A stretch of 51,563 nt of DNA. It comes from an uncultured Verrucomicrobiota bacterium (GTDB lineage: Bacteria > Verrucomicrobiota > Kiritimatiellia > CAYTQP01). The stretch covers positions 1 to 51,563 of the forward strand of contig CAYTQP010000002.1 of assembly GCA_964440175.1 (NCBI GenBank), in the 5' to 3' direction. Shown in pieces: positions 32,894 through 48,209 of this stretch. A program made the position numbers and the translations under genes. The notes beneath the pieces were generated by a model that was not told the origin of the DNA, made no database searches, and saw only the letters and a list, made by a program, of their open reading frames with translations. Positions within the stretch are counted from its first letter, which is position 1. Each line of letters begins with the position of its first letter.

Positions 32894-34118
32894 CCTTTCT
32901 CATTCCAGGTTTCCCGGGTTTAGAATTCTTTTTCCCCACAGGAGAACCCTTTTCGCGCAACGTCATCCCCGGCACAGGCACAGCTATGTGCGAAGAGACC
33001 ACACGCTCACCGTCATTCAAACCGCCACCTATCAACACCCTTCCCGAAGAACGCCGCAAAATATCGACATCCCTGAAACGCAGTTTTTTCTCTTCATCCA
33101 TCACCCACACCCGCTTCCCCTCGCGCACCAGCGTACCGGGCAACTCAATTGTGTCATCTACCGTCACACCCTCAATCAGGCAGTGAACATACGACCCTGC
33201 AAAGAGACGTTTTTTCCTGTCATCCCCCCGTAAACTCAGTGGGTCCTCCACACGCACCAGTACGCGTGCCATACGCCCGACCTTTCCCAATCCGCCCAGT
33301 ACACGAATCACTTTCCCTTTAAATTCAGTGGTTTCCCCACCGCCAAGATCGTGAAAAACCCGAACCGTAGCACCGCCAGCACCGTTCCGATCGGGCCAAT
33401 GCATATTGCGCAATTCCGCCACAGGCATAGATAGCTCCACGCGAAACGAATCTGTGCCCGCCAGTGCCGCCAACCGCGCCTGTGGCGAAACCAGTTGCCC
33501 GCAATCAACATATTCATCGAGAACAACCGCATTAAACGGAGCCTTAATCTCGGTGCGCTCCATATCGAGTCGCGCCCGCTCAAGAGCATTACTCGCCGCA
33601 TAAACCTTTGTCATTGCCGCCTTCAGTTGCGGTCCGCGCAACGCTAATGCTTTAGCGCGGCTATCCTCCACCATCCCCACATCAAGCATGCTCCACTCCT
33701 CCCGCGCAATATCCCTGCGCGAAAGTTCAATCTGATACAACACTCCCGCCTGCTCCAACGCAGATTCACCCTGTTTGACGGCAACCAAATAGTTGCGCTT
33801 GTCAATACGCAACAAAACCTCGCCCTCATCCACAATCCCACCGGGAATCAGATTGGGGTTCTTCCAGACAATTAATCCGCTCACCTCTGGCTTCAACTCC
33901 ACATTCTTTTCCGGCATGACATTTCCATCGGCATCGATAATTATCCGATGGCTCCCCTTTTTAACCGTCACCGTCTCCACCACCAACACAAGCTTCGGCT
34001 GTTTCTTCTTTCTGGGAGAAGTTTTAGTCTTCACCAGCCACACAGCCAGCACCACTGTTAATACGAGAACCATTATCGGTGTCAGCACCTGTAAAAAATT
34101 TAGTTTTTTCCCACTCAT
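32874..34118 (-). CDS. RND efflux periplasmic adaptor (membrane fusion protein)
   Basis: N-terminal anchor, a coiled-coil hairpin region and beta-barrel segments. It is sandwiched between the OMF and RND genes, with a 1-nt TAATG overlap with the OMF gene. Confidence 0.85.
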   Translation of the reverse strand: MSGKKLNFLQVLTPIMVLVLTVVLAVWLVKTKTSPRKKKQPKLVLVVETVTVKKGSHRIIIDADGNVMPEKNVELKPEVSGLIVWKNPNLIPGGIVDEGEVLLRIDKRNYLVAVKQGESALEQAGVLYQIELSRRDIAREEWSMLDVGMVEDSRAKALALRGPQLKAAMTKVYAASNALERARLDMERTEIKAPFNAVVLDEYVDCGQLVSPQARLAALAGTDSFRVELSMPVAELRNMHWPDRNGAGGATVRVFHDLGGGETTEFKGKVIRVLGGLGKVGRMARVLVRVEDPLSLRGDDRKKRLFAGSYVHCLIEGVTVDDTIELPGTLVREGKRVWVMDEEKKLRFRDVDILRRSSGRVLIGGGLNDGERVVSSHIAVPVPGMTLREKGSPVGKKNSKPGKPGMRKDVSDES

Positions 34119-35554
34119 TATCTCTCTCCGTTATTTAGCTCCGCACGCTCATCCAGACCCGGAAAATTACCGCCCAGCGCACGATGAAGCTGGATGCGAA
34201 AACTCACAAGCTTTCGCCGCGCATCCACAAGTGCGCGTGCCGTCGCCTGCTTCGACTCAAGGGCAGTCAACACCGAAAGATAATCGCTCAGCCCACGCCT
34301 GTAACGCGAACCCGCCTGTTTCAAAGTTTGCTCTGCTATCTCGTACTGGCGCGTCTTGCGACGGATCAGCTCCACCTGCTGTTGCTCCTCAACAAGTGCG
34401 TCCTCTACCTCCCGCATCGCGTTCAAAAGCACCTCTCCGCATCGACTCAGCCTCTCCGCCACCACCGCCTGTGCGCGATCGGCTTCCGCCCGCCTTCGCC
34501 CGCCGTCAATAATCGGTGCCAGCAAATTTCCCGCCACATTCCAAAGCCAGTCGTCCAACAGATCGGCTGCGTCGCTGGCAGAGTAACCCGCAGATGCAGT
34601 AAGTCGCAACGAAGGCAATCGGTCGGCAATAGCGGCTGCGACACGTTCATCCGCCGCCCTGACACGCTCAATCGCGGAGCGCACATCCGGACGATTTTCC
34701 AGTAGATCAGCCGGCACCCCCATCTCCGGCTTCGGCGGCAGATCAGGAATGCTTGCTGGTTTTAAATCGGCAACATTTTGCGGGTTACGCCCCAGCAACA
34801 CCGCCAATTGATGACGTTTTGTGACCAGCATAGACTCAATGCCAGGTTGAAATGTCTGCAATGCAGCCAGTTGTCCGCGCTGTTGCCACACATCCAAAGC
34901 CGTCGCCTGCCCGGTCTTAAAACGCAGTTCTATCAAGTGGACAACTTTCTCGTTACTCCCAATCTGGGCCTCCAGTAACTCAAGTTGCTCATTCAACGAT
35001 GCCAGATAATACCACGTCTCCACCACCCGTGCCACCAGCGTCATTGCCGCCGTCTCCAAATCGTCCATTGATGCCTGCGCATCAATTGCCGCCGCCCGCT
35101 CAATCGCGCCAACCCGCCCCCACAAATCAATCTCGTATGATGCTGCTAGATTCAAACCGAATCTGTTGCTTGTCCGGCTGACCTTATTCCCCCGCATATC
35201 AAAAGCCGTTGCACGCCCGCGGGCGGCGGATCCTCCTGCGTTCACTTGCGGAATGCGTGCCGCGCCTGCTTTCCGCGCCAAAGCCTCGGCCTGCTCCAAA
35301 CGCGCCGCCGCCTGTTTCAATCCTGGATTTCCTGCCAGTGCTTCCTCAATAATCGCGTTAAGCCCCGTGTCCCCAAATGAAGTCCACCAATAATTGGTAC
35401 TCGCCCGTCCCTCAACCCGCATCTCATACGCCTCAGGAATCACAGCCGGGGGCAACCGTGCCTCTTTTGGAATATGTGCGCAGGAGCAGAACACCATCAA
35501 TCCGACAGCCCCCGCTAAAAACGATCTAATAACTCTCTCACCCATCTCCGCCAC
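34118..35554 (-). CDS. Outer-membrane efflux lipoprotein (NodT/TolC family)
   Basis: Lipobox-like LMVFCSC followed by two TolC-type repeats (e.g. LQTFQPGIESMLV...RPDVRSAIERVRAADERV). First gene of the efflux operon. Starts at GTG 35554 or ATG 35545. Confidence 0.85.
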   Translation of the reverse strand: MAEMGERVIRSFLAGAVGLMVFCSCAHIPKEARLPPAVIPEAYEMRVEGRASTNYWWTSFGDTGLNAIIEEALAGNPGLKQAAARLEQAEALARKAGAARIPQVNAGGSAARGRATAFDMRGNKVSRTSNRFGLNLAASYEIDLWGRVGAIERAAAIDAQASMDDLETAAMTLVARVVETWYYLASLNEQLELLEAQIGSNEKVVHLIELRFKTGQATALDVWQQRGQLAALQTFQPGIESMLVTKRHQLAVLLGRNPQNVADLKPASIPDLPPKPEMGVPADLLENRPDVRSAIERVRAADERVAAAIADRLPSLRLTASAGYSASDAADLLDDWLWNVAGNLLAPIIDGGRRRAEADRAQAVVAERLSRCGEVLLNAMREVEDALVEEQQQVELIRRKTRQYEIAEQTLKQAGSRYRRGLSDYLSVLTALESKQATARALVDARRKLVSFRIQLHRALGGNFPGLDERAELNNGER

Positions 35555-35607: not shown

Positions 35608-35640
35608 GATTCAGAGTCCCGGAAGTTTACCGCTTCATGC

Positions 35641-35668
35641 AAAAAACACTTGTCCCAAGCCTGGACAA
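35641..35668 (-). terminator. Candidate intrinsic terminator after the MoxR-cluster operon
   Basis: On the minus strand: TTGTCC-aggcttg-GGACAA, then gtg, then TTTTTT (plus-strand A6 at 35641-35646). The stem is short (6 bp), so the call is weak. Confidence 0.35.
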
Positions 35669-35713: not shown

Positions 35714-36445
35714 TCAAAACGACGTTCCTTCGTTCCGCCGCTCACCGCGCTTATAGACACTGCTGACCACATTGCGGACAAACTGTTCGTCGGAGATGTT
35801 TTCGGACACTTCGGGCGGGAAGCACACCATGCTCTGAAAATGTGCCGCCAGGGCATGAAACACCTCAAGACGTGCGCGATCCTCGAAATCGGAACAGCGC
35901 AGCAACGCGGAGACAGCAATTGAAACCTCACGCGGAGAGATGAGTGAGCAGAGACGCGCCTCCAGGGATGGATAACTGCGGAATGAGTTGTATTTCCCGC
36001 CGATAAGTCCCTCCACGTCCGGCAGGCGGGCACGGGGCTGTCGCACAACCAGTGTTCCGGCGGCGATATCCCCCAGCCGTTGTGTACGCGGACTGAGCAG
36101 AACCGTGATGCCGCCCACGAAATAGAAGATCGGGAATGAGTCCACAAAACGGAGAAGGTTGCGTATGACAATCTGGCTGAAGCGGAGACGATAGCCACTC
36201 TCCTCAACCACCCGCAGACGCATGATGCGTTTCCCGAGTGTCTGCCCGTTCCACATCCACTCCAGATAGATGCTGTATCCAATCGATATTGCGAAATAGA
36301 TCAGTGCCGAAAGTGCCATCGCGACATTTAAATCAAAGACAGCAACCAGACCGAGCAAAAAACTCACCCCCATAGTTAATATACTGACCACCGCAAGATC
36401 GAGTAGCCATGCCAACATGCGGGAGGCTGGACTGGCAAGCATCAT
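35714..36445 (-). CDS. RDD family membrane protein
   Basis: SRMLAWLLDLAVV...GQTLGKRIMRLRVV...RNLLRFVDSFP is the RDD-domain pattern, with 3 TM segments and a ~110-aa cytoplasmic tail. Confidence 0.7.
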   Translation of the reverse strand: MMLASPASRMLAWLLDLAVVSILTMGVSFLLGLVAVFDLNVAMALSALIYFAISIGYSIYLEWMWNGQTLGKRIMRLRVVEESGYRLRFSQIVIRNLLRFVDSFPIFYFVGGITVLLSPRTQRLGDIAAGTLVVRQPRARLPDVEGLIGGKYNSFRSYPSLEARLCSLISPREVSIAVSALLRCSDFEDRARLEVFHALAAHFQSMVCFPPEVSENISDEQFVRNVVSSVYKRGERRNEGTSF

Positions 36446-36497
36446 AGAGAAGACAAGCCCCTCCGGCGTGCGAATATTGTGTGTGTGAAACTTTGTG

Positions 36498-37508
36498 TTA
36501 ATCGTCTGCGCCCTCCACGTTTCCCGCCTTACGCCCGCTGAACATCAGAAACGCCGACAGCAAAAGCAACTCCATTATGCCAACAGCTATCTTGATCGTG
36601 TAAGGAAGAACCGGTTCATGATTCTGCGAGAAATATGCTTCAACAATCCCCGCCCACACCAACAGGCACGCCACTCCTCCAATCAACGTCACAAGATCGG
36701 GCATGACAGCACGCAAACGCATTCTCATGGAGAGCCGATCGCCCCATCCTATCATCGCTCCAGCGAGTAGCAGTCCCGCCTGCCCGGCAATCAGTATGGC
36801 TGGTATCTCCACGCTTCCGTGCGGTAGCAACCAGCCCGTTAAAAACACGCCCTCACCGGCCATAACATAGTCGGCAATCACCGCCCCCATAATAACACCA
36901 TTGTAAAAGAGCAGTATGACAGAACCCACACCCCATGAAATCCCCAACGCCAGAATAAGAATGGAAACCTTTGTGTTGTGGGTCATCAGCGTTGTCGAAA
37001 AATAACCATGCCCCTGCGACGAAAAATTACCCTCTCTCTCCTCTTCATCAACACGTTCCGACGGACTTCCCTGAAGATGAGAGAACGGCATCAGCACAGC
37101 CTTGGCTTCGGAATCGGCAATCAGCGCGGCTCCGCCGAAAAACATACCGACCAAAGTGACCACGACGGAGAGCGAAAAACAACGGATGTTGTGACGAAAA
37201 ACACGCGGAAATGTTTTAAAAAACCAGTGAAACGGACGAAAACGTGTGCTACCAGACTGTCTCTCATGAATCTCACTGAATGATCTGGAGACAAGCGATT
37301 CGAGATAGACGCGCAACTCATCCTGCCCGATAAATTCACGTATATGCGCGAGATCGGCGGAGACGCGCTCAATCAGATAGTGAAAACGCTTGAGTTCATC
37401 GAGAGTGAATCTCCCAAACGGGTCACGTTTGATGCGGAGCAACAATGCCTCCAGCTCATCCCACACCGGTCGCTCTTTTTCAATAAACCGCTGGAGATCA
37501 ATAATCAT
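36498..37508 (-). CDS. SpoIIM-like (DUF95) membrane protein
   Basis: N-terminal soluble helix bundle (FIEKERPVWDELEALLLRI...RFHYLIERVSADLAHIR), then 5-6 TM segments with LLPHGSVEIPAILIAG, resembling the stage II sporulation protein M family. Confidence 0.6.
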   Translation of the reverse strand: MIIDLQRFIEKERPVWDELEALLLRIKRDPFGRFTLDELKRFHYLIERVSADLAHIREFIGQDELRVYLESLVSRSFSEIHERQSGSTRFRPFHWFFKTFPRVFRHNIRCFSLSVVVTLVGMFFGGAALIADSEAKAVLMPFSHLQGSPSERVDEEEREGNFSSQGHGYFSTTLMTHNTKVSILILALGISWGVGSVILLFYNGVIMGAVIADYVMAGEGVFLTGWLLPHGSVEIPAILIAGQAGLLLAGAMIGWGDRLSMRMRLRAVMPDLVTLIGGVACLLVWAGIVEAYFSQNHEPVLPYTIKIAVGIMELLLLSAFLMFSGRKAGNVEGADD

Positions 37509-38845
37509 ATCATCTGCCTCTGTTTAATCCGCATATACTGCGTAATAAGTTCAGTGCTAAGCTGTTCGTTATCAAGCAAATTGAACTGCACTCCGATAAC
37601 TTTGAGATGCACTCCAAGCTCGCGCAACTTGCGCCAGGCGATGTGTCCGCCGAGTCGCTCGTACAAATCGGAGACAGACTTTGCAGCCTCTCCGCTAAAT
37701 AGCGGTTGCGCTCCTTCAGGACTGATCATGTTCACCACCACCAGATGGTGACGGCTGAGCATGGCGATGCTCTCCCTAAAATGTTCTGCCTCATAGGCAT
37801 CATCAAGACTGGTCAGAAACACAAGGAGCGCACGCTTGCGCAGACGGGTGCGGATGAATGAGACAACCTCCGCGAAATCGGGTAAGGCATCTTCTGGAAG
37901 GAGTCTGTAGATGGCGTTGCGACACGTATCGAAATGCTGCTTCCCGCGTGCCGCTTTCAAAAAGATATGTGGCTTGGAGCCAAACTCTATCAAACCAAAC
38001 ATATCTCCCTGCGACTCCGCCGCCACGGCGAGCATCAACGTCGAACTGATGTAACGCTCCAGTAACGTCACGGTTTCATCGCTGTCCGGCACTTTCATCT
38101 GACGACTGCTGAGCCGCGAGGAATCAAGAATCACATAAACCTCCTGCGTCCGCTCAATCTGATAAACCTTTGTGACGGGATGCTGGCGTTTGGCAGTGGT
38201 TTTCCAGTGGATATCCTGATAGGTGTCGCCTGGAATATATTCACGCAACTTCTCAAATTCGCGCCCTTTGCTCACCTGTCGCCAGAGATGTCCGCCAAAA
38301 TCTCCACGGTTGAGAAAGAGCGCGGCCGCGCCACGTCGCTCACACCGCAAATTCGGATAGACGCGCAACTCTGTCTCCAGCGCAATCACCCGGCGCACAC
38401 TCCAAAACCCCAGCACCGATGCGACCTCCAGGCAACATGCACGCAGAAAAAACCTTCCGCACTCCACCGGCTCCACCGTCCAGCTCAAACCATACCATCT
38501 CTCCGCCTCAGGAATCGGCATCACAAAACTCTCCGCCACCGTATGTATCTTCTCCGGTAGCTGAAGGCCAAAACGCACAGCATTGAAAGTCCGCCCCGAA
38601 CTCTTGACCCGCAACTCGATGCGTCCCTCAACCCGCCTGGAAAGTCGCGCCATCTCAGATGCCTCCACCTCCAGCGGGAAGAGCCGCCGAAAACTGAGCG
38701 CGGCATCCAGCAAGATCGCAAGAAGAAGAAGAGTCGCCACCGCGATGGCGGCAGGAAAAGCGGCGGAGATAAACACCGTCACGAATGCGGCGGGCAGCAA
38801 CACCCAGCCCGTACTGAACAATAGTCTGTTTGCGGGAACAATCAA
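37505..38845 (-). CDS. DUF58 (vWA-fold) protein with N-terminal TM pair
   Basis: GREFEKLREYIPGDTYQDIHWKTTAKRQHPVTKVYQIERTQEVYVILDSSR is the DUF58 signature. It has 4-nt overlaps with both neighbours and follows MoxR, the usual partner arrangement. Confidence 0.78.
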   Translation of the reverse strand: MIVPANRLLFSTGWVLLPAAFVTVFISAAFPAAIAVATLLLLAILLDAALSFRRLFPLEVEASEMARLSRRVEGRIELRVKSSGRTFNAVRFGLQLPEKIHTVAESFVMPIPEAERWYGLSWTVEPVECGRFFLRACCLEVASVLGFWSVRRVIALETELRVYPNLRCERRGAAALFLNRGDFGGHLWRQVSKGREFEKLREYIPGDTYQDIHWKTTAKRQHPVTKVYQIERTQEVYVILDSSRLSSRQMKVPDSDETVTLLERYISSTLMLAVAAESQGDMFGLIEFGSKPHIFLKAARGKQHFDTCRNAIYRLLPEDALPDFAEVVSFIRTRLRKRALLVFLTSLDDAYEAEHFRESIAMLSRHHLVVVNMISPEGAQPLFSGEAAKSVSDLYERLGGHIAWRKLRELGVHLKVIGVQFNLLDNEQLSTELITQYMRIKQRQMI

Positions 38846-39807
38846 CGCGGCACCGATATTCCTTGTAAAATACGGGTGACAACCTCAGAGACCGACAATC
38901 CTTCAATCTCATACTCTGGACGCAGAATCACGCGCAGACACAAAACTGGTTCAGCCATCAGCTTGATGTCGTCCGGGCTGACAAAATCGCGTGCCTGAAT
39001 CGCCGCGTACGCCCGTGCGGCAAGTATGAGTGCCTGAGTGGCGCGGGGTCCCGCTCCAACGAGCGTGCTGTCGTCAGAACGTGTGGTGCGGATAATCTTC
39101 ACTGCGTACTCTATCAATTCATCACGTACAACGATTCCTCTCAGTGCCCCCCGCAATCCTGCGAGTTCAGCGGACGAGATAACAGCCTTAACCGCACCCG
39201 CATCCAACACACTTTCCGGCGCATCCGCGCCCAGTGTTCGGTGAGCAAGTAGCACCTCTTCCTCCTTATCCAGGCAACTCATTGTTATCTTCAGCATAAA
39301 TCTGTCTTTTTGCGCCTCTGGTAACGGATAAGTTCCCTCATACTCCAAAGGGTTCTGGGTGGCGAACACAGTGAAATTATCCGGCAACTGATGAGTCTCA
39401 CAATCAATTGTCACACAACGCTCCTGCATGGCCTGCAGCAGAGCCGACTGGGTTTTCGCCGGAGCCCGGTTGATCTCGTCCGCCAGCAAAAAAGTTGTGA
39501 AAACAGGACCCTTGATCAAGTTGAATTCGTTGTTTTTCATATTGAAAATATTAGTTCCTATAATGTCAGCCGGCATAAGATCGGGGGTAAACTGAATACG
39601 CCCGAAGTCACATCCAAGCACGCGGGCAAGCGTCCGCACCAGCAACGTCTTCGCCACACCGGGAACACCCTCAATCAGCGCATGATTGCGGGTTATGACC
39701 GCCACCAGTGCCTTATCCACCGTATCCCCCTGTCCGATAATAACCTTGCTTATTTCCGCCTTGGCGGTCACCAGAATCTGCTGGAGTTTTTCAATTGTGT
39801 ATTCCAT
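38842..39807 (-). CDS. MoxR-family AAA+ ATPase
   Basis: IIGQGDTVDKALVAVITRNHALIEGVPGVAKTLLVRTLARVLGCDFGRIQFTPDLMPADIIGT (Walker A), LLADEINRAPAKTQSALLQAMQE (Walker B), and a length of 321 aa. Confidence 0.92.
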   Translation of the reverse strand: MEYTIEKLQQILVTAKAEISKVIIGQGDTVDKALVAVITRNHALIEGVPGVAKTLLVRTLARVLGCDFGRIQFTPDLMPADIIGTNIFNMKNNEFNLIKGPVFTTFLLADEINRAPAKTQSALLQAMQERCVTIDCETHQLPDNFTVFATQNPLEYEGTYPLPEAQKDRFMLKITMSCLDKEEEVLLAHRTLGADAPESVLDAGAVKAVISSAELAGLRGALRGIVVRDELIEYAVKIIRTTRSDDSTLVGAGPRATQALILAARAYAAIQARDFVSPDDIKLMAEPVLCLRVILRPEYEIEGLSVSEVVTRILQGISVPR

Positions 39808-39810
39808 TAA

Positions 39811-41049
39811 TCACTTCCTTTCACTCAAGATTTCGGTAAGTCTGTTATAAAAATCGACAATCGGGAGTTTTGACTGCTCATCTTTCAGCACCTGCAACTC
39901 ATCGTTAAGTTTTTTCATCTTTCCCTGCATCGACGGTTGCTTCAAAAAAGTCGCCTTCCATTCATCAACCATTATCTCTTGCAATCTATTTCGCAGAATA
40001 TGATGCTTCAGAAGATTCGCAAAACCCTGCATAGAGCCAACCACCGCACACCGCTCATCAGAAGCAGAGGGTTCTGAATATTCAGGAATAAACCCGTACG
40101 AGTTTTTCCAGACAAACAATACTGCCAGCAGAAGTAGAGTGTACAACACCCACTGTAAACGATAACGCTTTATCAGCATCATAATCCCCTCCTTCGAGGC
40201 AACACCCAGATGAAATTCATCAAAGATAACATGCTTGGCTCCAGCTAACAAATATATAAGAAATCTGGTGTTCCGCTCAACAACCAGAGCCTCATTGCTG
40301 AAGCAATAACTGTCCGTCATAAGCACCAATGAACCCGCCCCCCAGTCACGCCTGATGATCACCGGGCAATTCTGGTAACGGTAAAGTACCGTCCACTCCG
40401 CGCTCAAATCTTTAAAATAGCGTGGCGACCTCCACCTGAGTGGTGCGAATTCGGTCATCAGCGACTCCGGCTGAGCATGAGTTTGCGACACACTGTCATT
40501 AATTTTCGCATAGCTGAATCTTTCGGTTCTCACACCCCAGTTTTTCGCCAAACCACGCCACTCACTCAACGCGCTGTGCGGTGCTGAATCAGACCGACTC
40601 TCCTCTTTTTTGACATTACCAGCCTTCTCCTCTTCGATTTCCGGCTCCTTAACCTCGGCATCACCCCTGCGTTCTAACTCATCTCTGAGCGAAGTTTTCG
40701 GTGAAAATGCCACAACCGCGTGACCTCCGGAAGTTAGATAACCGCGTAGCGTGTCACCAATATTTCCAGTCAAAAGATGCTGCTTAGCACCCAGATAAAA
40801 AACAACTGTGTCACTCCCGTCCATCTCCCCCAACGGCTCAAGCCAACGTTCCGTGGTCACACCGGGAAGCTCTTTGAGCGACTCGAACAATATTTTCGTA
40901 CCCCGTGGATCAGCGCGATATGTGGAGTAGGTCGGGAAGATGTCGCCAGAACGGAAACGCAACTCAAACAGGCGGTAAAAACCGATCAATGCAAGTGCCA
41001 CAAGCAACAGAAAAACGGTTGTAACCGAATATTTACTCTTCAAGATCAC
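39811..41049 (-). CDS. DUF4350-like membrane-anchored protein
   Basis: N-terminal TM, then RADPRGTKILFESLKELPGV and a second TM near residue 300. The family name is recalled from similar MoxR neighbourhoods and was not verified. Confidence 0.45.
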   Translation of the reverse strand: MILKSKYSVTTVFLLLVALALIGFYRLFELRFRSGDIFPTYSTYRADPRGTKILFESLKELPGVTTERWLEPLGEMDGSDTVVFYLGAKQHLLTGNIGDTLRGYLTSGGHAVVAFSPKTSLRDELERRGDAEVKEPEIEEEKAGNVKKEESRSDSAPHSALSEWRGLAKNWGVRTERFSYAKINDSVSQTHAQPESLMTEFAPLRWRSPRYFKDLSAEWTVLYRYQNCPVIIRRDWGAGSLVLMTDSYCFSNEALVVERNTRFLIYLLAGAKHVIFDEFHLGVASKEGIMMLIKRYRLQWVLYTLLLLAVLFVWKNSYGFIPEYSEPSASDERCAVVGSMQGFANLLKHHILRNRLQEIMVDEWKATFLKQPSMQGKMKKLNDELQVLKDEQSKLPIVDFYNRLTEILSERK

Positions 41050-42703
41050 GCCGCATCCTCTCTATATTTCTCTCCAACGTCTCAATATCATCAGTTGTCA
41101 CTGCGTGCAACCCGTACCACGCACGCTCAAAGAGTTTTGTGTTCTCTCCAAAAAGCGGAACCACAGCGGGTGTCCGCCGGGCGCGGCGGGCAAGCTCCCG
41201 GCTGTATTCGAGATTCGATTTTGAGTGCAAAATCGACAAAAGATCCGTTCGCTCCAAAAACGCTAAACCCGCGAGAAACCAGGCACGCATGGATTTCCGC
41301 AACTCACCGACTGCAGCCAATTTTCGGGCAAGCTCAATCCACTCGTCCTCCTCCAGCATCGTCGCGACAACATTCTCATCATCTATGTCGATACTGACGG
41401 AGACCGGCATCGCCTCCACAGTTTTTGACTGTGGCTTACGGTGGGAGAGAAGAATCTTCACCAGATATGCCACCAGAACTAAAATCATCACGCACAGCAA
41501 AACTTTAGACACCCACTTCAAAAAGGAGAAATCCCTGCCGCCAATATTAGTTTTTTTCATACCGGGTGGGTGGATGTGCTCCAATATCCACTTCAAAACG
41601 CCTCCAAAAAAAACGCCAACACCCTGTATTACACGTTCCATCCAGTTTACAATAGAATCGATGAATGTCCCAAAAAAGCCGTGCTTCTCCTCCCCGGCAG
41701 CAAACTCACGCGGCATACGCCAGGTGTATTCTGAGCGTCTCATAACCCGATCAACCGACGCATCCAGTTCCGCCTGTTCTATTACCGGCTCAGACACTGC
41801 AACATCCCCCTCCTGTCCAGTGGCAACCGCGATGACACTCATAAACAGCAACACCGTCACGACTCCCGTTCGAGCCCTACCCGCAATACCTCGTTTTGGC
41901 GGAATACTCCGGAGATCGGCAAGCAGATCCTCGCCAGTATAGATCGACTCACCAGCGTGAAAACGCAATACATAAAACGCCTTAAATAGAGGATCCACGG
42001 CAAGATAGGTCAAGCCAGACAGAACGCCCCAAAAGGTTGTGCTTAACAACCAGTAATGACTCCGAGAGAACACTGTCTCCATGCCCAGCAACGATTTCAG
42101 TAAATTCGGAGTCAACGCTATTACCATGCCGATATTGAGGAAAACAAAGAGAGCAAAGAGGGTCAATATGCAAACAGCGAAACCGTTCTGACGCGGCCAA
42201 ATTGTGGCCAAAGCGCGAGCCTTAACGGCGGCCTCCCCGAAAGTGCCTTCAAAAACATTCACTATGCACAGGTTGTTGAAATATGCGAACACCCACGCAA
42301 AAGGAAGAATTGTAAGTGCCGCTACCGGCATTATTAGCAAACCCCATGATGAATAGACTATATGAAAATATATCAAGCGCATTATCCGCCGCGCCGTCAG
42401 CGGCGCGGGATTTCCTAAAATAAAAGCCTCCCCCAGCCGCTGACAGAAAAGCGACTGCCAGACTCTCATCCAGATGTAAAGTAGTGCCATTCCAAGAGAT
42501 GTGGCGACGCAACGGGCGGACGCAAACGGATTCGAGGACATGTCCGTTAGAAAAAACAGTAGCCCCAACACAAACGGCGCGGCACCGAGATAGTATAGAG
42601 CAAACGTCGAAACCGATGCCTGACGAAGCAGATGAAACGCTCGTTCGACTATATCAAGACCACGCTCTCCTCTCCCCGCTTCCTTTCCCCTCATAACCAC
42701 CAC
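41033..42703 (-). CDS. Polytopic membrane protein with DUF4129-like C-terminal domain
   Basis: About 7 TM segments. The C-terminal LEEDEWIELARKLAAVGELRKSMRAWFLAGLAFLERTDLL......EYSRELARR....VPLFGENTKLFERAWYG resembles DUF4129. Confidence 0.55.
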   Translation of the reverse strand: MVVMRGKEAGRGERGLDIVERAFHLLRQASVSTFALYYLGAAPFVLGLLFFLTDMSSNPFASARCVATSLGMALLYIWMRVWQSLFCQRLGEAFILGNPAPLTARRIMRLIYFHIVYSSWGLLIMPVAALTILPFAWVFAYFNNLCIVNVFEGTFGEAAVKARALATIWPRQNGFAVCILTLFALFVFLNIGMVIALTPNLLKSLLGMETVFSRSHYWLLSTTFWGVLSGLTYLAVDPLFKAFYVLRFHAGESIYTGEDLLADLRSIPPKRGIAGRARTGVVTVLLFMSVIAVATGQEGDVAVSEPVIEQAELDASVDRVMRRSEYTWRMPREFAAGEEKHGFFGTFIDSIVNWMERVIQGVGVFFGGVLKWILEHIHPPGMKKTNIGGRDFSFLKWVSKVLLCVMILVLVAYLVKILLSHRKPQSKTVEAMPVSVSIDIDDENVVATMLEEDEWIELARKLAAVGELRKSMRAWFLAGLAFLERTDLLSILHSKSNLEYSRELARRARRTPAVVPLFGENTKLFERAWYGLHAVTTDDIETLERNIERMRRDLEE

Positions 42704-43032
42704 CCGCCAATGTTCTCAGGATGAAAAGAGTCCGGGATTAAAAGCAGAAGTCTCCCAAGCGCATAGAAAAACATCCAGATCACAAACAGATTCAAAACTG
42801 CAACGACCAGCCTTTTCACCACGCTAAAACCAATGAAAAACAAACCGTGACTCTTCTCTTCCCCGGAGATATTGAAACGCACGATACACGCCGCGCACAT
42901 CAGATGTCCCGCATGTTCGGTGACACACTCGCGGCAGAAGAAATTTTCACACCCGGAACAGCGTGCTACTGCTTCACGAGTGGCATGATTGAGACACCGA
43001 GCCTGATGCAAACGGAACATAAACGTTACCAA
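42691..43032 (-). CDS. B-box-like zinc-finger protein with C-terminal TM anchor
   Basis: 113 aa. Ligand pattern C13-x2-H-x8-C-x2-C-x4-C-x2-C-x9-C-x2-C49, then one or two hydrophobic helices. Its ends overlap both neighbouring genes. Confidence 0.6.
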   Translation of the reverse strand: MVTFMFRLHQARCLNHATREAVARCSGCENFFCRECVTEHAGHLMCAACIVRFNISGEEKSHGLFFIGFSVVKRLVVAVLNLFVIWMFFYALGRLLLLIPDSFHPENIGGWWL

Positions 43033-43571
43033 TCCTCCTTGTGGGATTCATTTGCGGATAACGCCGGGGCGGGCGTGGAAAAAATAACCTTCGAAGGTTC
43101 CTCTTTCATCTCTTCCAACGAAAACGCACCTTGCGCATCACGAATACGAGGCTCAATCCGCGCCATGAACTTCTCCACCTGTTTCACGCGGCCAAACATA
43201 TTCAACCTCTGTTTATTAACGTCGGTCTCTATCCAGCACTTGCATGTGCCTCCACGCACAAGGTGAATAATCAGGATGATAACCAAAATGATGAATGCAA
43301 CCGCGCTAAACCACCGCCCCCCGGTGAGATATGCCACACCCGTGAACAATGTCAAAAGTGACAAAATAATCATCCAGGCAACATAGTCGGCAGAAAGAAC
43401 CGTAACCACAGAATGGATATCACCGTAATAAAAACGCTTATGCTTCTCTAACCACCCAACGCTCGTCACAAATAAAAGGTGATCCTCCTCCTCACTCAAG
43501 CGCGAGAACGATATCCATGACTTACCCTTCCCCAGAAGTTTTTTATGTTTTGATCTATCCAACACTGGCAA
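43026..43571 (-). CDS. Hypothetical two-TM membrane protein
   Basis: 181-aa ORF overlapping both neighbours (7 nt and 17 nt). It has a central TM pair (YVAWMIILSLLTLFTGVAYL / WFSAVAFIILVIILIIHLV). No domain recognised. Confidence 0.5.
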   Translation of the reverse strand: MPVLDRSKHKKLLGKGKSWISFSRLSEEEDHLLFVTSVGWLEKHKRFYYGDIHSVVTVLSADYVAWMIILSLLTLFTGVAYLTGGRWFSAVAFIILVIILIIHLVRGGTCKCWIETDVNKQRLNMFGRVKQVEKFMARIEPRIRDAQGAFSLEEMKEEPSKVIFSTPAPALSANESHKEDW

Positions 43572-44136
43572 TCCACCTGATTAAAATGACAAGAGCAATA
43601 ATCCATCCGACAATCTCAAATAGCGCGAAAATAAAGGCCGCCGACATGCGTGCGCGTGCCGAAGGCTTGATCTTCTCGTGATAACGCACAACAACAAAGA
43701 TGGTTGCCGGCGCAGTAAAGACAGTGAAAGGGAAAGACAACAATGGCAACACCGCCAAATAAAACGCTATCTTATCATAACGCATAACACTCGAAACAAA
43801 CGCGTCTTCGCCGGGTTGGCGACGGCGTGCCTCCAAACATGGCGCACACAGCGACTCCCCGCCCAGCGGCAACTCACACAACGCGCAAAGAAACCGACCG
43901 CACTCATCACAAACAATCTCCGCCTTCTTGTCGGCATGATAGTAACAGACAGCGTCATCCATATCCGCCTTCACCGCCAGACGCGATTCCGGCGCATTCC
44001 GGTAAAGCGCGGGAAACGCATACACCCGCACCCTGGCCAAACAAACCCCGCACACCTCATATTTCGCCGAAGTGTTGTACTGCTCCGCGTTCAGCGGATA
44101 ATCACATTTCGGACATTTGACGTAAGAGACACTCAT
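43555..44136 (-). CDS. Zinc-ribbon plus B-box-like zinc-finger membrane protein
   Basis: C8-x2-C-x17-C-x2-C32 ribbon, then C64-x2-H-x8-C-x2-C-x4-C-x2-C-x9-C-x2-C100, with spacing identical to the 113-aa protein, then 3 TM segments. Confidence 0.62.
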   Translation of the reverse strand: MSVSYVKCPKCDYPLNAEQYNTSAKYEVCGVCLARVRVYAFPALYRNAPESRLAVKADMDDAVCYYHADKKAEIVCDECGRFLCALCELPLGGESLCAPCLEARRRQPGEDAFVSSVMRYDKIAFYLAVLPLLSFPFTVFTAPATIFVVVRYHEKIKPSARARMSAAFIFALFEIVGWIIALVILIRWIASVG

Positions 44137-44140
44137 AAAC

Positions 44141-44887
44141 CTACTTGTAAATCACACGGGTGTTGCAAATGTGATCGTGTAATGCCCGCTTCTCATCATC
44201 AAACGCTACGATTATATAGCCAATATACAAAATTATTCCACTCAGAAATGTCGCAAAATACCGCCCCGTAGCGCAACCGTAAGAGATAGGAGTTCCATCC
44301 GACATCACAACCTTAATGCCCACCGCCTTTTTGCCCAGCGTGGCTCCGTATTTCCCCAGCATTAGAATGGAATAGAGTGCGGGAACCAGAAAGGCAACAA
44401 TAAAATACAACGCCGTAGAGAAAACCGTAAGTGCCATGTTCTCAGATGTGTTGCCCAGCGTCATCAGAATCCGGAATGGAATAACAATAATATTCATGAA
44501 AATGCCGTCAATGAAAACCGCCACAAACCGTATCCAAAAGCCCGCGTAGCGAAACGAAACCATTTGCGGTATTTCAGAGTTCTCCTTAATCCGTTGAATA
44601 AACCCCGGCTTGCATTCCGCGCAGACACGCGAACCCTCAAAAACGATCATCTCGTTAACATGAAAATTTCTCCCGCATATTGAACAAACCGACCCTCCCT
44701 CCGCTACGTCAAATCCGCTGGACTGTTCACGCAGATGCGGAATGTCCGCGTAACGTGCCCAGTCAGACATCCCCTCCTTCCAAACCAGCGTCTCGCTGTC
44801 AATCTCTCCCGAAGCGAATAGAGAAACCAAATCCGGCTCATTAACCGGCTCCCTCTGTTGCCCGTTAACCGTATAAAACCACATCAT
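44141..44887 (-). CDS. GYF_2 (DUF4339) - zinc ribbon - RDD domain fusion protein
   Basis: From ATG 44887 (RBS GAGGGA upstream): WFYTVNGQQREPVNEPDLVSLFASGEIDSETLVWKEGMSDWARYADIP (GYF_2 pattern), CSIC-x17-CAEC ribbon, then the RDD pattern (YAGFWIRFVAVFIDG...GATLGKKAVGIKVV...ALHD). The track ORF start at 44989 would include the candidate promoter. Confidence 0.65.
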   Translation of the reverse strand: MMWFYTVNGQQREPVNEPDLVSLFASGEIDSETLVWKEGMSDWARYADIPHLREQSSGFDVAEGGSVCSICGRNFHVNEMIVFEGSRVCAECKPGFIQRIKENSEIPQMVSFRYAGFWIRFVAVFIDGIFMNIIVIPFRILMTLGNTSENMALTVFSTALYFIVAFLVPALYSILMLGKYGATLGKKAVGIKVVMSDGTPISYGCATGRYFATFLSGIILYIGYIIVAFDDEKRALHDHICNTRVIYK

Positions 44888-44937
44888 AAAACTATCCCTC
44901 TCAATGCAAAAGTCCATCCGCGCCCAATGTCGACCAA

Positions 44938-44964
44938 AATATAGAACACCAGGACTTCCGTCAA
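44938..44964 (-). promoter_or_regulatory. Candidate promoter of the ten-gene MoxR-cluster operon
   Basis: On the minus strand: TTGACG (44964-44959), a 15-nt spacer, then TATATT (44943-44938), about 50 nt upstream of ATG 44887. This is a consensus match only and the spacer is short. Confidence 0.3.
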
Positions 44965-45292
44965 GATATTTCGGAATCATTCCACGCAAAAAATGTCAAA
45001 CCTCTATCCGCGTCACAGAACCTGCATCCTGAATACAGTCTACTTTTAAAACACCGCTGGAAGGCTTCATTGGGCACACACTCGACCAGCATTTTAGAAC
45101 TGGATCGTTAGTCGTTTCATCCTTATATTCACAGGCTGTTTAACCAACGCGCCGCATAAGCAATTCCCGGAGTTTGAGTCTATAATTTGCTTTTTCCGGA
45201 AGCGGCGGTCTATCAAAAAATATGCGTTATCCGTTTTACCATCATAAAACACATCTTTTTGCTTGCATGGCGTTTTGGGGAAAGGCTCTAAA

Positions 45293-48193
45293 CTACGGTA
45301 GTTTCACCTTTATTCTGTAGAACTCCAGCGGCAGATTGTTGGTGACAATCACGAAGTCCGCGCCGCCTTTCCCCATCCTCGGAGGAACCCCCGGAACGTT
45401 TGTCCAAACGCCGGAAATGAGGTTTGTGCATCCATACAAGGTATAAAGACGATTGCTTGATGAGATAAAATCAATTTTTGCGGGAACCTCACTCATGAGG
45501 GTCGTTCGAAAGTACTCATTAGAGTCTACCGGATTGGTGTCGGCAATATATTCCTCTCGCGTTGTGAATGGATCGTGATCGGGGTTGCCGCCGGGAGGCT
45601 CTGACGGAGAAAGGCCGAATCTGGCGAGCCATGAGGCAGGAATCATCCCGGATGTGTTAATATATTCATACGCCCCCATGTCCACAACACCTTCAGTTAT
45701 TCTCGGATTCCCGGGCAAGTCCACAGCACCTTTCGTCATCCACGAAACAGTAAGCCCAGCATTCACACAAATAGAGTTCGATTGCAACGAATAGTCCCCG
45801 CCACCCACAAAACCAGAATTGGCTACGAGATTGCTGGTTCCCGGTCCGGAAAAAGATTCTCCTAGGCAGGAGTAACTAATGCGGGTTTGATTAGTCTCAC
45901 CGTTCCAGTCAATATCATCGTCGCCATTGCCATAAATAATGCAGTTTAACATATCTATATCTGATCCTATGTAGAGACCATCGGCATGACCATCACTTGT
46001 GTTGGCGGTGATGGTCAGGTTGGTGAGACCAGCCCTGATCAAATAGCCGTCGGCATAAACGCCGCCACCATTGCCTGTGGCATGATTGCCAGCAACCAGC
46101 ACACTTATAGCGGTTCCCCTCGGAGCGTAAAGACCTCCGCCATTCCCCCCGCTTTGATTGTTTTTGACAACACAGTTAAGAACACGTGTGTCCGTATCAA
46201 CCATATAGAGACCTCCGCCATTCCCGCCCGCTGTGTTATCGGTAAAAACGCAACGTTCATAACGTCCTCCATCTGTGGTGATTCCGCCACCACCGCCATC
46301 ACCGGCAATGTTATTGGAAATCACAGAATCACTGATAACCACTCTGCTGTCATAAGAGATAAACCCGCCTCCACTGCCAGTCGCCGTATTGGCGGAAATC
46401 AGACAATTCTCCACGCACGTAGCACCGTCCAGATAAAGACCACCGCCCACTGATGCCGTGTTGCTCACCACAACACAGTTGCGGAGTGTCCCCCCTTTGA
46501 GCCGGGCGGCCCCGCCATATCCCGGTGAGTTGATACCGCCCCATTCGCTGTTCCCGCCAGTTAGCGTCAAATTCTCTATCACCGAGTTCACGTCTCTGTA
46601 AACCTGAACGCAACGATCACGTGGAGAGATCGTTGACCCATCCAATATTACCTCTGTGTTCAATGCTGTCCCAATTAGCTTAAGCTCCTTTGAAGCGTCC
46701 ATAATCAACGTGCCGGAGAGCTGATAACGTCCAGCTGCAATCTTAATGATATCGCCGGTACCAGCAACATCAAAGGCATCATTAACGCTTCGTGCCGCCG
46801 TGGCCTCTGTTGTGTAAGGGGATATGTCGCTTCCAGATTTTGACACGTAACGGATAATCGGTGTGCGTAGCGTGAGACAGGCATCACCATCAATACGCAT
46901 TCCGTTGAACCAGAGCGGTGTACGCCAATATTTCTCATAGTAAATTTTATCCACTTTGACACACGAGTTGTACCAAAGTCTGAATGCCTCACCAACACAC
47001 TTTCCTGAACTCAACGCATTGTAAAAAACTGAGGCGCGGTAATTATTGAAAGAGATCATTCCTCCGGTTCCTGAATGTGACCACGAAACGAGTCCTCCCG
47101 CCTGTGGATTCATAACCGTTATGCGGTTGAAACAGTTGGCTACGGTAAAATTGGCACTGGAACACCCATAAATATTGTAAAATACCGCACGGGGATCCCT
47201 GGAAAGATAGTCCGTTGGTCTCACAGTGACTCCATCATCCCACTGATGAGTTGTGGCCGTGCCATGACAACGCACCTGAATCAGTTCATAATCAGCGTTG
47301 AGATAGTTGTCGCGATAGTCAACTCCGCCCGTGCCGAAGTCTCTGCCAACCACTCTGGATGTAACAGACGGGAAAACAGCCTGCAACTCGTGGACATCAT
47401 TATCCGCGTTAGCGGCCCAATCGGTATCCGTGTAATGCAACGCCGCCTTGCTCACCGAAACACTTCCGCTGCGGTAGGCGTGATTTCTCGAAAAATAATT
47501 ATTCAACAAATCAACCGTCGAATAAGTGCCGATTGCGAGATTGTCGGCGGCAATGCGTGCCACCCAGATTTCACAGTAGAGATCACCAGCGCGAGCATCG
47601 TAACATCCGGCAGCAAAAGGCGCATTTGTATTGGCATCCATCCAGACTCCATCCAAATCCATAAAATAAAAATCACAAATTTCGGCTTCGTAAAACCCAT
47701 GCCCGGACTCAAACTCTTTGATCATCTCCCAAATGACATAAGGAAGATTTCCCACCAAAACCACGCCACTGAGTGAATCCTGTTCCGCATAATAACCCTG
47801 AAGCAATGTTCTCAGCTGCAAAGCATCACCTGAAAAAGTGATGACAAAGGGATCAAATCCCTGCGTGACAAGATCGGCGACATAACTGCTGACACCTGTG
47901 GCGATAGACGGATAGAGCGCGGTCTCAACTACCACCGCGACGCGACCGCCCGCAACCAGTCCCGGATCAAAACTCCTTGTCCCCAATGGACGCGGAATCG
48001 GAATCTTCTCCACAGCCAGAGGGGCGGCGGTATAATCTGGCGGTGGCGGCGATGCCCGACCGTCAGCACGCCTTGTCGGAAGAGGATCGCCCCAAACAGA
48101 GGCGGACACGGCAAAAATTGACAAGATAAGTATTATACTGTTTTTTTTAATTTTCATCTTTCTGTCCATCTCCAAAATATGCTGTCTAATCAT
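45293..48193 (-). CDS. Large secreted protein: gingipain-like (clan CD, C25-like) domain + parallel beta-helix repeats + C-terminal FYR module
   Basis: Signal peptide MKIKKNSIILILSIFAVSASVWG (likely true start 48157). Candidate His-Gly/Cys dyad (VRCHGTATTHQW at 47264-47266; IYGCSSANF at 47162-47164). At least six N-x-[AS]-x-G-x-GGG[LFV][YI] beta-helix/Pmp-like repeats. A TSP3-like NPDHDPFTTREEYIADTNPVDSNEYF segment. Confidence 0.6.
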   Translation of the reverse strand: MIRQHILEMDRKMKIKKNSIILILSIFAVSASVWGDPLPTRRADGRASPPPPDYTAAPLAVEKIPIPRPLGTRSFDPGLVAGGRVAVVVETALYPSIATGVSSYVADLVTQGFDPFVITFSGDALQLRTLLQGYYAEQDSLSGVVLVGNLPYVIWEMIKEFESGHGFYEAEICDFYFMDLDGVWMDANTNAPFAAGCYDARAGDLYCEIWVARIAADNLAIGTYSTVDLLNNYFSRNHAYRSGSVSVSKAALHYTDTDWAANADNDVHELQAVFPSVTSRVVGRDFGTGGVDYRDNYLNADYELIQVRCHGTATTHQWDDGVTVRPTDYLSRDPRAVFYNIYGCSSANFTVANCFNRITVMNPQAGGLVSWSHSGTGGMISFNNYRASVFYNALSSGKCVGEAFRLWYNSCVKVDKIYYEKYWRTPLWFNGMRIDGDACLTLRTPIIRYVSKSGSDISPYTTEATAARSVNDAFDVAGTGDIIKIAAGRYQLSGTLIMDASKELKLIGTALNTEVILDGSTISPRDRCVQVYRDVNSVIENLTLTGGNSEWGGINSPGYGGAARLKGGTLRNCVVVSNTASVGGGLYLDGATCVENCLISANTATGSGGGFISYDSRVVISDSVISNNIAGDGGGGGITTDGGRYERCVFTDNTAGGNGGGLYMVDTDTRVLNCVVKNNQSGGNGGGLYAPRGTAISVLVAGNHATGNGGGVYADGYLIRAGLTNLTITANTSDGHADGLYIGSDIDMLNCIIYGNGDDDIDWNGETNQTRISYSCLGESFSGPGTSNLVANSGFVGGGDYSLQSNSICVNAGLTVSWMTKGAVDLPGNPRITEGVVDMGAYEYINTSGMIPASWLARFGLSPSEPPGGNPDHDPFTTREEYIADTNPVDSNEYFRTTLMSEVPAKIDFISSSNRLYTLYGCTNLISGVWTNVPGVPPRMGKGGADFVIVTNNLPLEFYRIKVKLP

Positions 48194-48209
48194 TCGAACT
48201 TCATCTAAC

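Follow-up and report, generated by a model that had tools for sequence, protein, structure and literature searches.

MoxR ATPases and von Willebrand factor A (vWA) proteins form remodelling pairs such as CbbQ/CbbO, NorQ/NorD, RavA/ViaA and BchI/BchD, with further examples in the Bacteroides Bat operon and Rhizobium cmdA-D. These pairs are best known for roles in enzyme maturation, and in CbbQ/O, NorQ/D and RavA/ViaA the ATPase acts through its vWA partner. Gene clusters that join MoxR and DUF58 genes to those for DUF4129, DUF4350, SpoIIM and RDD proteins are common, also in Mycobacterium tuberculosis, and have been assigned no role. Here we analyse ten consecutive genes, g1 to g10 in their 5′ to 3′ order, within a 51,563-nucleotide stretch of DNA from an uncultured Verrucomicrobiota bacterium of the class Kiritimatiellia (contig CAYTQP010000002.1; the whole stretch is called the window below). 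The last six genes of the block, g5 to g10, make up the DUF4129-DUF4350-MoxR-DUF58-SpoIIM-RDD core, which is widespread. The first four, together with a long N-terminal membrane domain of g5, are a module that travels with the core in this system lineage. The six-gene core is an already known, though unstudied, neighbourhood. We judge it probable, though well short of certain, that the window holds one copy of a conserved, self-contained ten-gene operon encoding a multi-subunit inner-membrane complex built around MoxR and DUF58.

Bacterial and archaeal relatives of the core have been described from several directions. The same six families occur together in the mycobacterial clusters Rv3689-Rv3695 and MAB_0386c-0392c, where their expression changes together (PMC8191103). 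For archaea, computational analysis has predicted that a linked arCOG01314 (DUF4350) protein, MoxR ATPase and vWA protein act as a complex in secretion or membrane remodelling (Makarova, Galperin, Koonin 2015, PMC5898192); DUF4350 is described there as an extracytoplasmic GldG-like or flavodoxin-like domain, and bacterial SpoIIM homologues are reported to adjoin genes for vWA proteins and COG0714 ATPases. MoxR-vWA ternary systems of biological conflict also exist (Kaur, Burroughs, Iyer, Aravind 2020, PMC7159879). Within the literature that could be searched, to which Burroughs et al. 2011 (on prokaryotic B-boxes) did not belong, we met with no account of the ten-gene form and its B-box, GYF and PH-like module. 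Combinations of the DUF names led only to expression tables and to Makarova 2015.

The window compares with these systems to different degrees. It shares the g6-g10 order, with a DUF4129-type gene just upstream, with the clusters of M. tuberculosis (Rv3689-Rv3695) and M. chelonae (MAB_0386c-0392c) and with the plasmid-borne cores considered below, the likeness to the mycobacterial core being drawn through published annotation only. The plasmid cores differ in having a DUF4129 protein of about 250 residues that lacks the polytopic N-terminal domain, and DUF805 genes upstream instead of g1-g4. The archaeal arCOG01314 system resembles it in linking a membrane-anchored DUF4350 protein with a MoxR ATPase and a vWA-type protein; the archaeal neighbourhoods, however, contain Ig-like and S-layer-type proteins and are without the B-box, GYF, PH-like, RDD and DUF4129 proteins found here. 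Like the MoxR/vWA pairs, the window has an AAA_3-type MoxR gene beside that of a vWA-like partner, through which the ATPase probably acts. It departs from them in the membrane anchor of that partner, a DUF58 protein with a non-canonical metal-site motif, and in having eight other dedicated membrane proteins and no gene for a client enzyme. The Bat aerotolerance operon sets BatA/BatB proteins, which combine vWA and transmembrane (TM) segments, and TPR proteins (BatC/BatE) beside MoxR and DUF58. We rejected a Bacteroides-type Bat operon as the identity of the block: by Pfam, none of the ten products has BatA/BatB-type vWA-TM or TPR domains.

The ten-gene order is conserved across phyla

By scanning a g5 alignment against one genome per species, we found relatives in 288 genomes. 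The best 80 of these 288 loci were taken with 10-kb flanks, and their six-frame open reading frames (ORFs) were searched with profiles made from the ten window proteins. By label, 48 of the 80 loci are Verrucomicrobiota, 9 Desulfobacterota-type, 4 Acidobacteriota, 3 Kiritimatiellota, 3 Nitrospirota and 3 unspecified Proteobacteria/Pseudomonadota; Haliangiales, FCPU426, Moduliflexus and an 'uncultured bacterium' account for one each, and 6 labels are implausible. Nearly every g5-anchored locus that is long enough reads 1-2-3-4-5-6-7-8-9-10 along a single strand. We counted 43 loci as complete, with at least 3 kb upstream of g5 and at least 6 kb downstream of it, and 42-43 of these hold all ten genes in colinear order: g3, at least one B-box gene and g6 are each present in all 43, and a g1-like gene and each of g7-g10 in 42. 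Two B-box ORFs occur in at least 35 of the 43, which is an undercount arising from the position filter.

An independent anchor gave the same order. An alignment of g3, searched against metagenome contigs, retrieved at least 466 relatives, whose neighbours were scored wherever the contig was long enough. Upstream of g3, g2 was present in 52/53 loci and g1 in 34/34. Downstream, g5 followed in 30/35, g6 in 13/15, g7 in 10/13, g8 in 10/12, g9 in 8/10 and g10 in 7/9. The association between front end and core is thus close to obligate for this long form of g5. An earlier note on this DNA, made from its letters alone, had supposed that the core acquired its four-gene front end here, and had proposed a survey of gene neighbourhoods in which the front end might never accompany the core. 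The survey returned the opposite, a near-obligate linkage, and the idea of an acquisition here has to be given up, as the ten-gene order is kept across phyla from the g5 and g3 anchors alike.

The linkage extends to distant relatives. The most divergent g5 relatives (loci L168 and L169) still lie inside a full block, and in the L168 copy, whose g5 is 32% identical, most junctions are 4-nt overlaps. The most divergent g3 relatives (L164 and L166) are also in the block, but there the GYF_2+RDD protein g1 has been swapped: a divergently transcribed GYF_2+Yip1 membrane protein and a DUF2752 protein stand in its place (L164:7851-9266, L166:7848-9270). A GYF-bearing membrane protein is therefore kept despite the exchange of its membrane module. 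L164 also lacks the two 3′-terminal genes, for SpoIIM and RDD. No flanking gene is conserved with the block, the commonest flanking family occurring in 6 of the 43 complete loci; the block behaves as a discrete, self-contained unit in varied genomic surroundings.

Some of the sampled genomes call for comment. The metagenome-assembled genomes (MAGs) that contain L008, L024, L034, L041, L068 and L072 bear the names Bifidobacterium/Bifidobacteriaceae, Klebsiella or Saccharimonadales; the g5 proteins encoded there fall among verrucomicrobial ones, at 33-37% identity to that of the window, and the labels look like binning or naming errors. Two contigs of one verrucomicrobial MAG, cluster1_bin.665, carry one copy of the block each (L025 and L029), which suggests two paralogous copies or strain mixing.

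Gene structure of the block in the window

The ten ORFs are consecutive on the minus strand and span 35714-44989 with the longest starts, or 35714-44887 with the likely start of g1 (Table 1). The genes lie where the earlier note had put them, and with the longest starts the junctions are exactly those that it had listed: from g1 to g10, a gap of 4 nt, overlaps of 17, 7, 13 and 17 nt, a gap of 3 nt, two overlaps of 4 nt, and a gap of 52 nt. Three junctions move by a few bases under alternative in-frame starts; g5 read from its ATG, for example, gives an ATGA 4-nt overlap with g4. No gene fusion was found in a search for fusions among the ten families. Four metagenome contigs encode an identical MoxR protein, and all ten genes are present on one of them.

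Table 1. Genes of the block and candidate regulatory sites, in window coordinates (aa, amino acids; AF2, AlphaFold2 model)
Feature	Position	Strand	Description	Length, basis or remark
g1	44141..44887	-	GYF_2 + CxxC...CxxC zinc ribbon + three-TM RDD	248 aa; Pfam
g2	43555..44136	-	N-terminal zinc ribbon + B-box-type zinc finger + two C-terminal TM helices	193 aa
g3	43026..43571	-	'Orphan'; predicted PH-like beta-sandwich split by TM hairpin	179-181 aa; AF2
g4	42691..43032	-	B-box zinc finger + hydrophobic C-terminal membrane segment	109-113 aa; Pfam
g5	41033..42703	-	Long polytopic membrane protein with C-terminal DUF4129 helical bundle	Pfam, AF2
g6	39811..41049	-	DUF4350 protein	Pfam, hydropathy
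g7	38842..39807	-	MoxR-family AAA+ ATPase, sole soluble product	321 aa; Pfam
g8	37505..38845	-	DUF58 (vWA-like) protein with N-terminal hydrophobic TM region	446 aa from TTG; Pfam
g9	36498..37508	-	SpoIIM-family polytopic membrane protein + ~105-aa N-terminal domain (DUF8413)	Pfam
g10	35714..36445	-	RDD membrane protein + conserved ~125-aa C-terminal domain	Pfam
Promoter candidate	44936..44964	-	Sigma-70-like, TTGACG-17-TATTTT	9/12 consensus matches; 49 nt upstream of g1 ATG
Terminator-like hairpin	35640..35668	-	Hairpin + T-run; 6-bp stem with 3 GC pairs, tail GTGTTTTTTG	46 nt past g10 stop

Two starts deserve attention. The longest ORF of g1 reaches 44989; because the N-terminus 'M.WYY' is conserved in 66 homologues and public gene calls, at 248 residues, use that start, the true start is most likely the ATG at 44887. 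For g8, public calls place the start 21 codons downstream, at an internal GTG, giving a protein of 425 residues behind a 59-nt gap and dropping part of the N-terminal hydrophobic region. Since the N-terminus MIVP..RLL is kept in 64 homologues, the TTG start, from which g8 overlaps moxR by 4 nt, is the better reading.

Membrane segments were called from a hydropathy scan, which found hydrophobic segments in nine of the ten products, MoxR being the exception that the earlier note had named. Domains were called by Pfam profile search of the ten window proteins against curated cut-offs. This search bore out every domain that the earlier note had named, with the B-box of g4 barely above and that of g2 barely below its cut-off; g3 alone remained without a match. 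The description of the block as a membrane-associated MoxR AAA+/DUF58 system with operon-like genes is a fair one.

Front-end proteins g1 to g4

The g1 protein matches GYF_2 at 59.1 bits (cut-off 25.8) and RDD at 91.2 bits (cut-off 24.1), and its ribbon cysteines are kept in 66 homologues. The g2 B-box scores 22.6 bits with zf-B_box, slightly under the cut-off of 24.1; g4 scores 22.5 bits with the same profile and passes narrowly with ANCHR-like_BBOX (27.6 bits against 27.0). In aligned sequences of g2 and g4 (85 and 101, respectively), the B-box ligand pattern C-x2-H-x7-C-x2-C-x4-C-x2-C is kept, and the zinc ligands of B-boxes and ribbons are conserved throughout the g1, g2 and g4 families. 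Cysteine-rich zinc fingers of bacteria are normally cytoplasmic, and such complete conservation of the ligands, in the two B-boxes and in the ribbons, leads us to favour a cytoplasmic location for these domains.

For g3, neither Pfam nor NCBIfam contains a matching family, and no Pfam domain is assigned to any of the 94 homologues for which precomputed annotation was listed. A full HMMER scan of 1.84 billion clusters returned 1,730 representative homologues at E<=1e-3. The AlphaFold2 model of g3 (pLDDT 88.4) places strands at residues 19-57, a TM hairpin at 59-104, further strands at 107-121 and a helix at 127-145, so that four strands, the hairpin, two strands and the helix follow one another; a PH domain is defined by a seven-strand sandwich and a C-terminal helix. 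In a Foldseek search against the PDB, the best matches to the model were PH domains, led by the bacterial 3dcx (probability 0.99, E 0.036) and including Sin1, Lam6, SSRP1 and USP37, with TM-scores of 0.3-0.6 and all E-values above 1e-3. With moderate confidence, we regard g3 as a predicted PH-like domain divided by a membrane hairpin.

The g3 family falls into two length classes, of about 180 and about 320-390 residues. Proteins of the long class have an extra C-terminal half with four TM segments and are common in Verrucomicrobiota and Desulfobacterota (ORFs in L008, L017, L021, L048, L054, L063, L064 and others), and the short class is that of this window and of other Kiritimatiellota. Proline-rich C-terminal tails are peculiar to g3 proteins: 19% of homologues have PPP within the last 40 residues, as opposed to 0% for the nine other families. 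The loop between TM2 and TM3 of g5 (window 42380-42430, residues ~92-108) carries a 'PPP[L/W]..RR' motif, which reads NPAPL in the window; 15/82 homologues have PPP there, and a further 26 have PP or PxP. The g3 tails and the g5 loop are candidate ligands for the GYF domain, weak leads that we do not rely upon.

Core proteins g5 to g10

The g7 protein matches AAA_3 at 210.6 bits (cut-off 27) and AAA_lid_2 at 68.2 bits (cut-off 22.7), as well as the solved Cytophaga MoxR 2r44 (E 2.9e-74). Its Walker A motif GVPGVAKT and Walker B motif LLADEINR are kept at 90% or above in 71 homologues, as are many further columns, and judged by these residues the MoxR protein is apparently an active ATPase. Its partner g8 scores 64.3 bits with DUF58 (cut-off 23.4) and 17.2 bits, a weak match, with VWA_2 (cut-off 27), and has a conserved hydrophobic N-terminal region. 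In place of the canonical DxSxS of a metal-ion-dependent adhesion site (MIDAS), g8 has D-x-S-R-L, the second serine being replaced by a conserved leucine.

The g5 protein comprises an N-terminal helical membrane domain of about 270 residues, a middle region with a conserved EYTWRMPRE motif, and the C-terminal DUF4129 bundle. The DUF4129 match (27.2 bits, cut-off 24.8) covers residues 502-546, the C-terminal 45 residues only. An all-helical AlphaFold2 model (pLDDT 81.9) found no PDB fold match at E<0.1 by Foldseek; resemblances to CysZ and to a four-helix-bundle or HEPN-like fold were weak only and were not used. We collected 108 homologues of g5, the nearest named ones being from Pontiella desulfatans (51% identity), Tichowtungia aerotolerans (46%) and MAGs of Pontiellaceae, which places the window in a member of the Kiritimatiellota.

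DUF4350 is matched by g6 at 54.1 bits (cut-off 30.4). By hydropathy, the protein has an N-terminal signal-anchor TM, a globular domain of about 260 residues, a second TM and a C-terminal tail of about 100 residues, a layout that agrees with the published extracytoplasmic view of DUF4350. PDB sequence searches with g6 and g8 gave no matches. The g9 protein matches SpoIIM (PF01944) at 111.7 bits (cut-off 26.9), preceded by a putative cytoplasmic domain that precomputed annotation lists as DUF8413. We rejected its assignment as the sporulation protein SpoIIM proper, as it scores 13.4 bits with the equivalog model TIGR02831 against a cut-off of 100.2; g9 is a family member only. At the end of the block, g10 matches RDD at 83.4 bits (cut-off 24.1), and its C-terminal domain is strongly conserved among 57 homologues.

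A core without the front end

Searching plasmids by tblastn, we obtained 55 records with g9 (Rhizobium 52, Paracoccus 2, Nonomuraea 1) and no match with g6. The two plasmid clusters examined among these records, from Rhizobium and Paracoccus, encode DUF805 proteins, a short DUF4129-like protein of 244-251 residues, and DUF4350-like, MoxR, DUF58, SpoIIM and RDD proteins; neither matches the g2, g3, g4 or g5 profiles. The DUF805 membrane proteins lie upstream of the short DUF4129 protein (L170:4548-5631, L171:5239-5679) and may be an alternative front end. Along with PMC8191103 and PMC5898192, these plasmids support the statement in the earlier note that the six downstream genes form a recurrent neighbourhood with no assigned function.

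Comparison of the sequences points to a system with two forms: in one, the core stands alone and its DUF4129 protein is short; in the other, the extended form, g1-g4 are present and g5 is long. Our sample of the core-only form is small, namely two plasmid clusters and, via published annotation, the mycobacteria. As g1-g4 co-vary with the long g5 and its polytopic N-terminal domain of about 270 residues, we infer that the front-end proteins work on or with that domain.

Regulatory sites and flanking genes

The promoter and terminator candidates that had been proposed for the block are both present, and they carry little weight when set against expected counts. In the region, 18 promoter-like sites were found against 8.6 +/- 2.9 expected, so that such sites are common and not specific, and 17 terminator-like sites against 13.3 +/- 3.6, with no enrichment over shuffled sequence. 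We treat both kinds of site as weak evidence. An Rfam scan of the 405-nt spacer upstream of the block found no riboswitch or leader.

Further upstream on the minus strand (window 45293-49694) are genes for a 966-residue protein with Peptidase_C25 (gingipain-like) and Chlamydia-PMP-type repeat regions and for a 494-residue FG-GAP repeat protein, neighbours that recur on a Logan contig of the same organism and are not conserved with the block elsewhere. Directly downstream, also on the minus strand (window 29750-35554), lies an OEP-HlyD-AcrB efflux trio of the resistance-nodulation-division (RND) type. The same arrangement occurs at L168:17095-21653 and is not found in most other loci; the adjacency could reflect lineage synteny or a loose functional link.

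Proposed mechanism and alternative explanations

By analogy with the characterised MoxR/vWA pairs, a cytoplasmic MoxR hexamer would hydrolyse ATP and act through the membrane-anchored DUF58 protein to assemble the membrane subunits g5, g6, g9 and g10 or to switch their conformation. The DUF4350 domain of g6, placed beyond the membrane, would provide an envelope-facing output. On the cytoplasmic face, the zinc ribbon and B-box proteins (g2, g4), the GYF and ribbon protein (g1) and the split PH-like protein (g3) would probably be docked on the N-terminal domain of g5, where, as adaptors that bind peptides or proteins, they could bring in a client or control the motor. The output would then be the assembly, gating or remodelling of an envelope-related complex.

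One alternative is a more specific version of this proposal, in which the block encodes an apparatus for secretion or for assembly of a surface structure: DUF4350 and the other extracytoplasmic parts would form a platform, and MoxR/DUF58 would power or mature it. The similarity of DUF4350 to GldG by HHpred, on which a secretion or membrane-remodelling complex was proposed (PMC5898192), speaks for it, together with the signal-anchor, large domain and second TM of g6 and the fact that all sampled carriers belong to diderm phyla. Yet across the 43 complete loci the block has no conserved association with a substrate, an S-layer or Ig-like protein, a secretin or any outer-membrane component; the Ig-like partner families of the archaea are absent from the ten products by Pfam, and most of the conserved soluble domains (zinc fingers, GYF, MoxR) appear cytoplasmic. 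We regard this version as unlikely. A maturation chaperone, inserting metal or cofactor into a membrane enzyme encoded elsewhere in the manner of NorQ/NorD, CoxD/CoxE or MoxR/methanol dehydrogenase, with the membrane subunits as scaffold, would suit a block that has no enzyme of its own and is conserved like a housekeeping system. Known pairs, however, usually adjoin their client, and no enzyme gene is conserved nearby in the 43 loci. The MIDAS of the DUF58 protein is also non-canonical, and eight further dedicated membrane proteins exceed what known maturation systems employ. We hold this explanation to be a little less probable again.

Regulated membrane proteolysis or quality control, with the B-box, GYF and PH-like adaptors presenting membrane proteins to a peptidase encoded elsewhere, would make sense of two conserved B-box membrane proteins and an AAA+ motor; Burroughs, Iyer and Aravind reportedly described prokaryotic B-box domains in 2011 as partners of membrane peptidases. 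None of the examined loci has a peptidase gene inside the block or beside it, and to our knowledge MoxR ATPases do not serve as unfoldase partners of proteases, which leaves this explanation very improbable. Least probable of all is a role in phage defence or conflict, of the kind played by MoxR-vWA systems, with zinc-finger and GYF sensors and membrane effectors. Such systems (PMC7159879) likewise combine a MoxR ATPase and a vWA-like protein with, in some cases, membrane-proximal components; a weak bpMoxR match (47 bits) and a weak resemblance of the RDD regions to the C-terminus of PD-T4-6 in PADLOC (19.6 and 15.6 bits) point the same way. The other eight proteins, however, have no match in PADLOC-DB 2.0, and no system model there matches the set. 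Unlike conflict systems, the block lacks variable effectors and sensors as well as a third component of the VMAP, iSTAND or beta-propeller kind; its composition is invariant, its order and sequences are conserved across phyla in what looks like vertical descent, and its flanks are neither defence islands nor conserved. On the PADLOC result and the invariant composition, we rejected the defence reading.

Several observations weigh against the ten-gene membrane complex that we prefer. The non-canonical MIDAS of g8 means that the metal-mediated ligand capture usual for vWA domains may not apply, and PDB searches with g5, g6 and g8 offer no solved relative for the membrane subunits, whose contacts, stoichiometry and topology we infer. 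About 5 of the 35 scored g3-anchored metagenome loci have g1-g3 followed by unrelated genes, so that front end and core can be physically separate. Such detached front ends consist of g1-g3 followed by a URO-D-like gene (L110, L159) or by genes for an FHA protein, an extracytoplasmic function (ECF) sigma factor and DUF1573 (L146, L132), or of g1-g4 followed by NMT1_3 and AAA_21 genes (L118). Finally, the block encodes no client, enzyme, protease or secreted substrate, and for that reason any statement of its output is a guess. The most likely output of the proposed complex is assembly or remodelling of the envelope or of a membrane complex, and not defence.

Implications

More boldly, and with a probability that we put well below even, one may see in the block a previously unrecognised, phylum-spanning inner-membrane machine, in which a MoxR/DUF58 motor is gated by four dedicated cytoplasmic adaptors docked on a novel polytopic DUF4129 protein and serves a new envelope process, be it export, membrane remodelling or trans-envelope signalling. 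The mycobacterial and rhizobial core would then be a stripped-down relative.

The copy in the window is an ordinary member of its family. The extended form to which it belongs is a fixed unit, at least 288 species genomes having a g5 relative across Verrucomicrobiota, Kiritimatiellota, Desulfobacterota, Acidobacteriota, Nitrospirota and Myxococcota. It comes with a defined list of parts, among them the likely cytoplasmic adaptor domains (B-box, GYF, zinc ribbon and a PH-like domain with a TM hairpin insert), and the link between these adaptors and the long DUF4129 protein is testable. Pontiella desulfatans, whose locus lies around PDESU_02890, and Tichowtungia aerotolerans are cultured carriers in which genetics could be attempted. 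Were a function to be found, thousands of 'hypothetical' membrane proteins would be annotated at once, and the result would probably inform the mycobacterial core as well.

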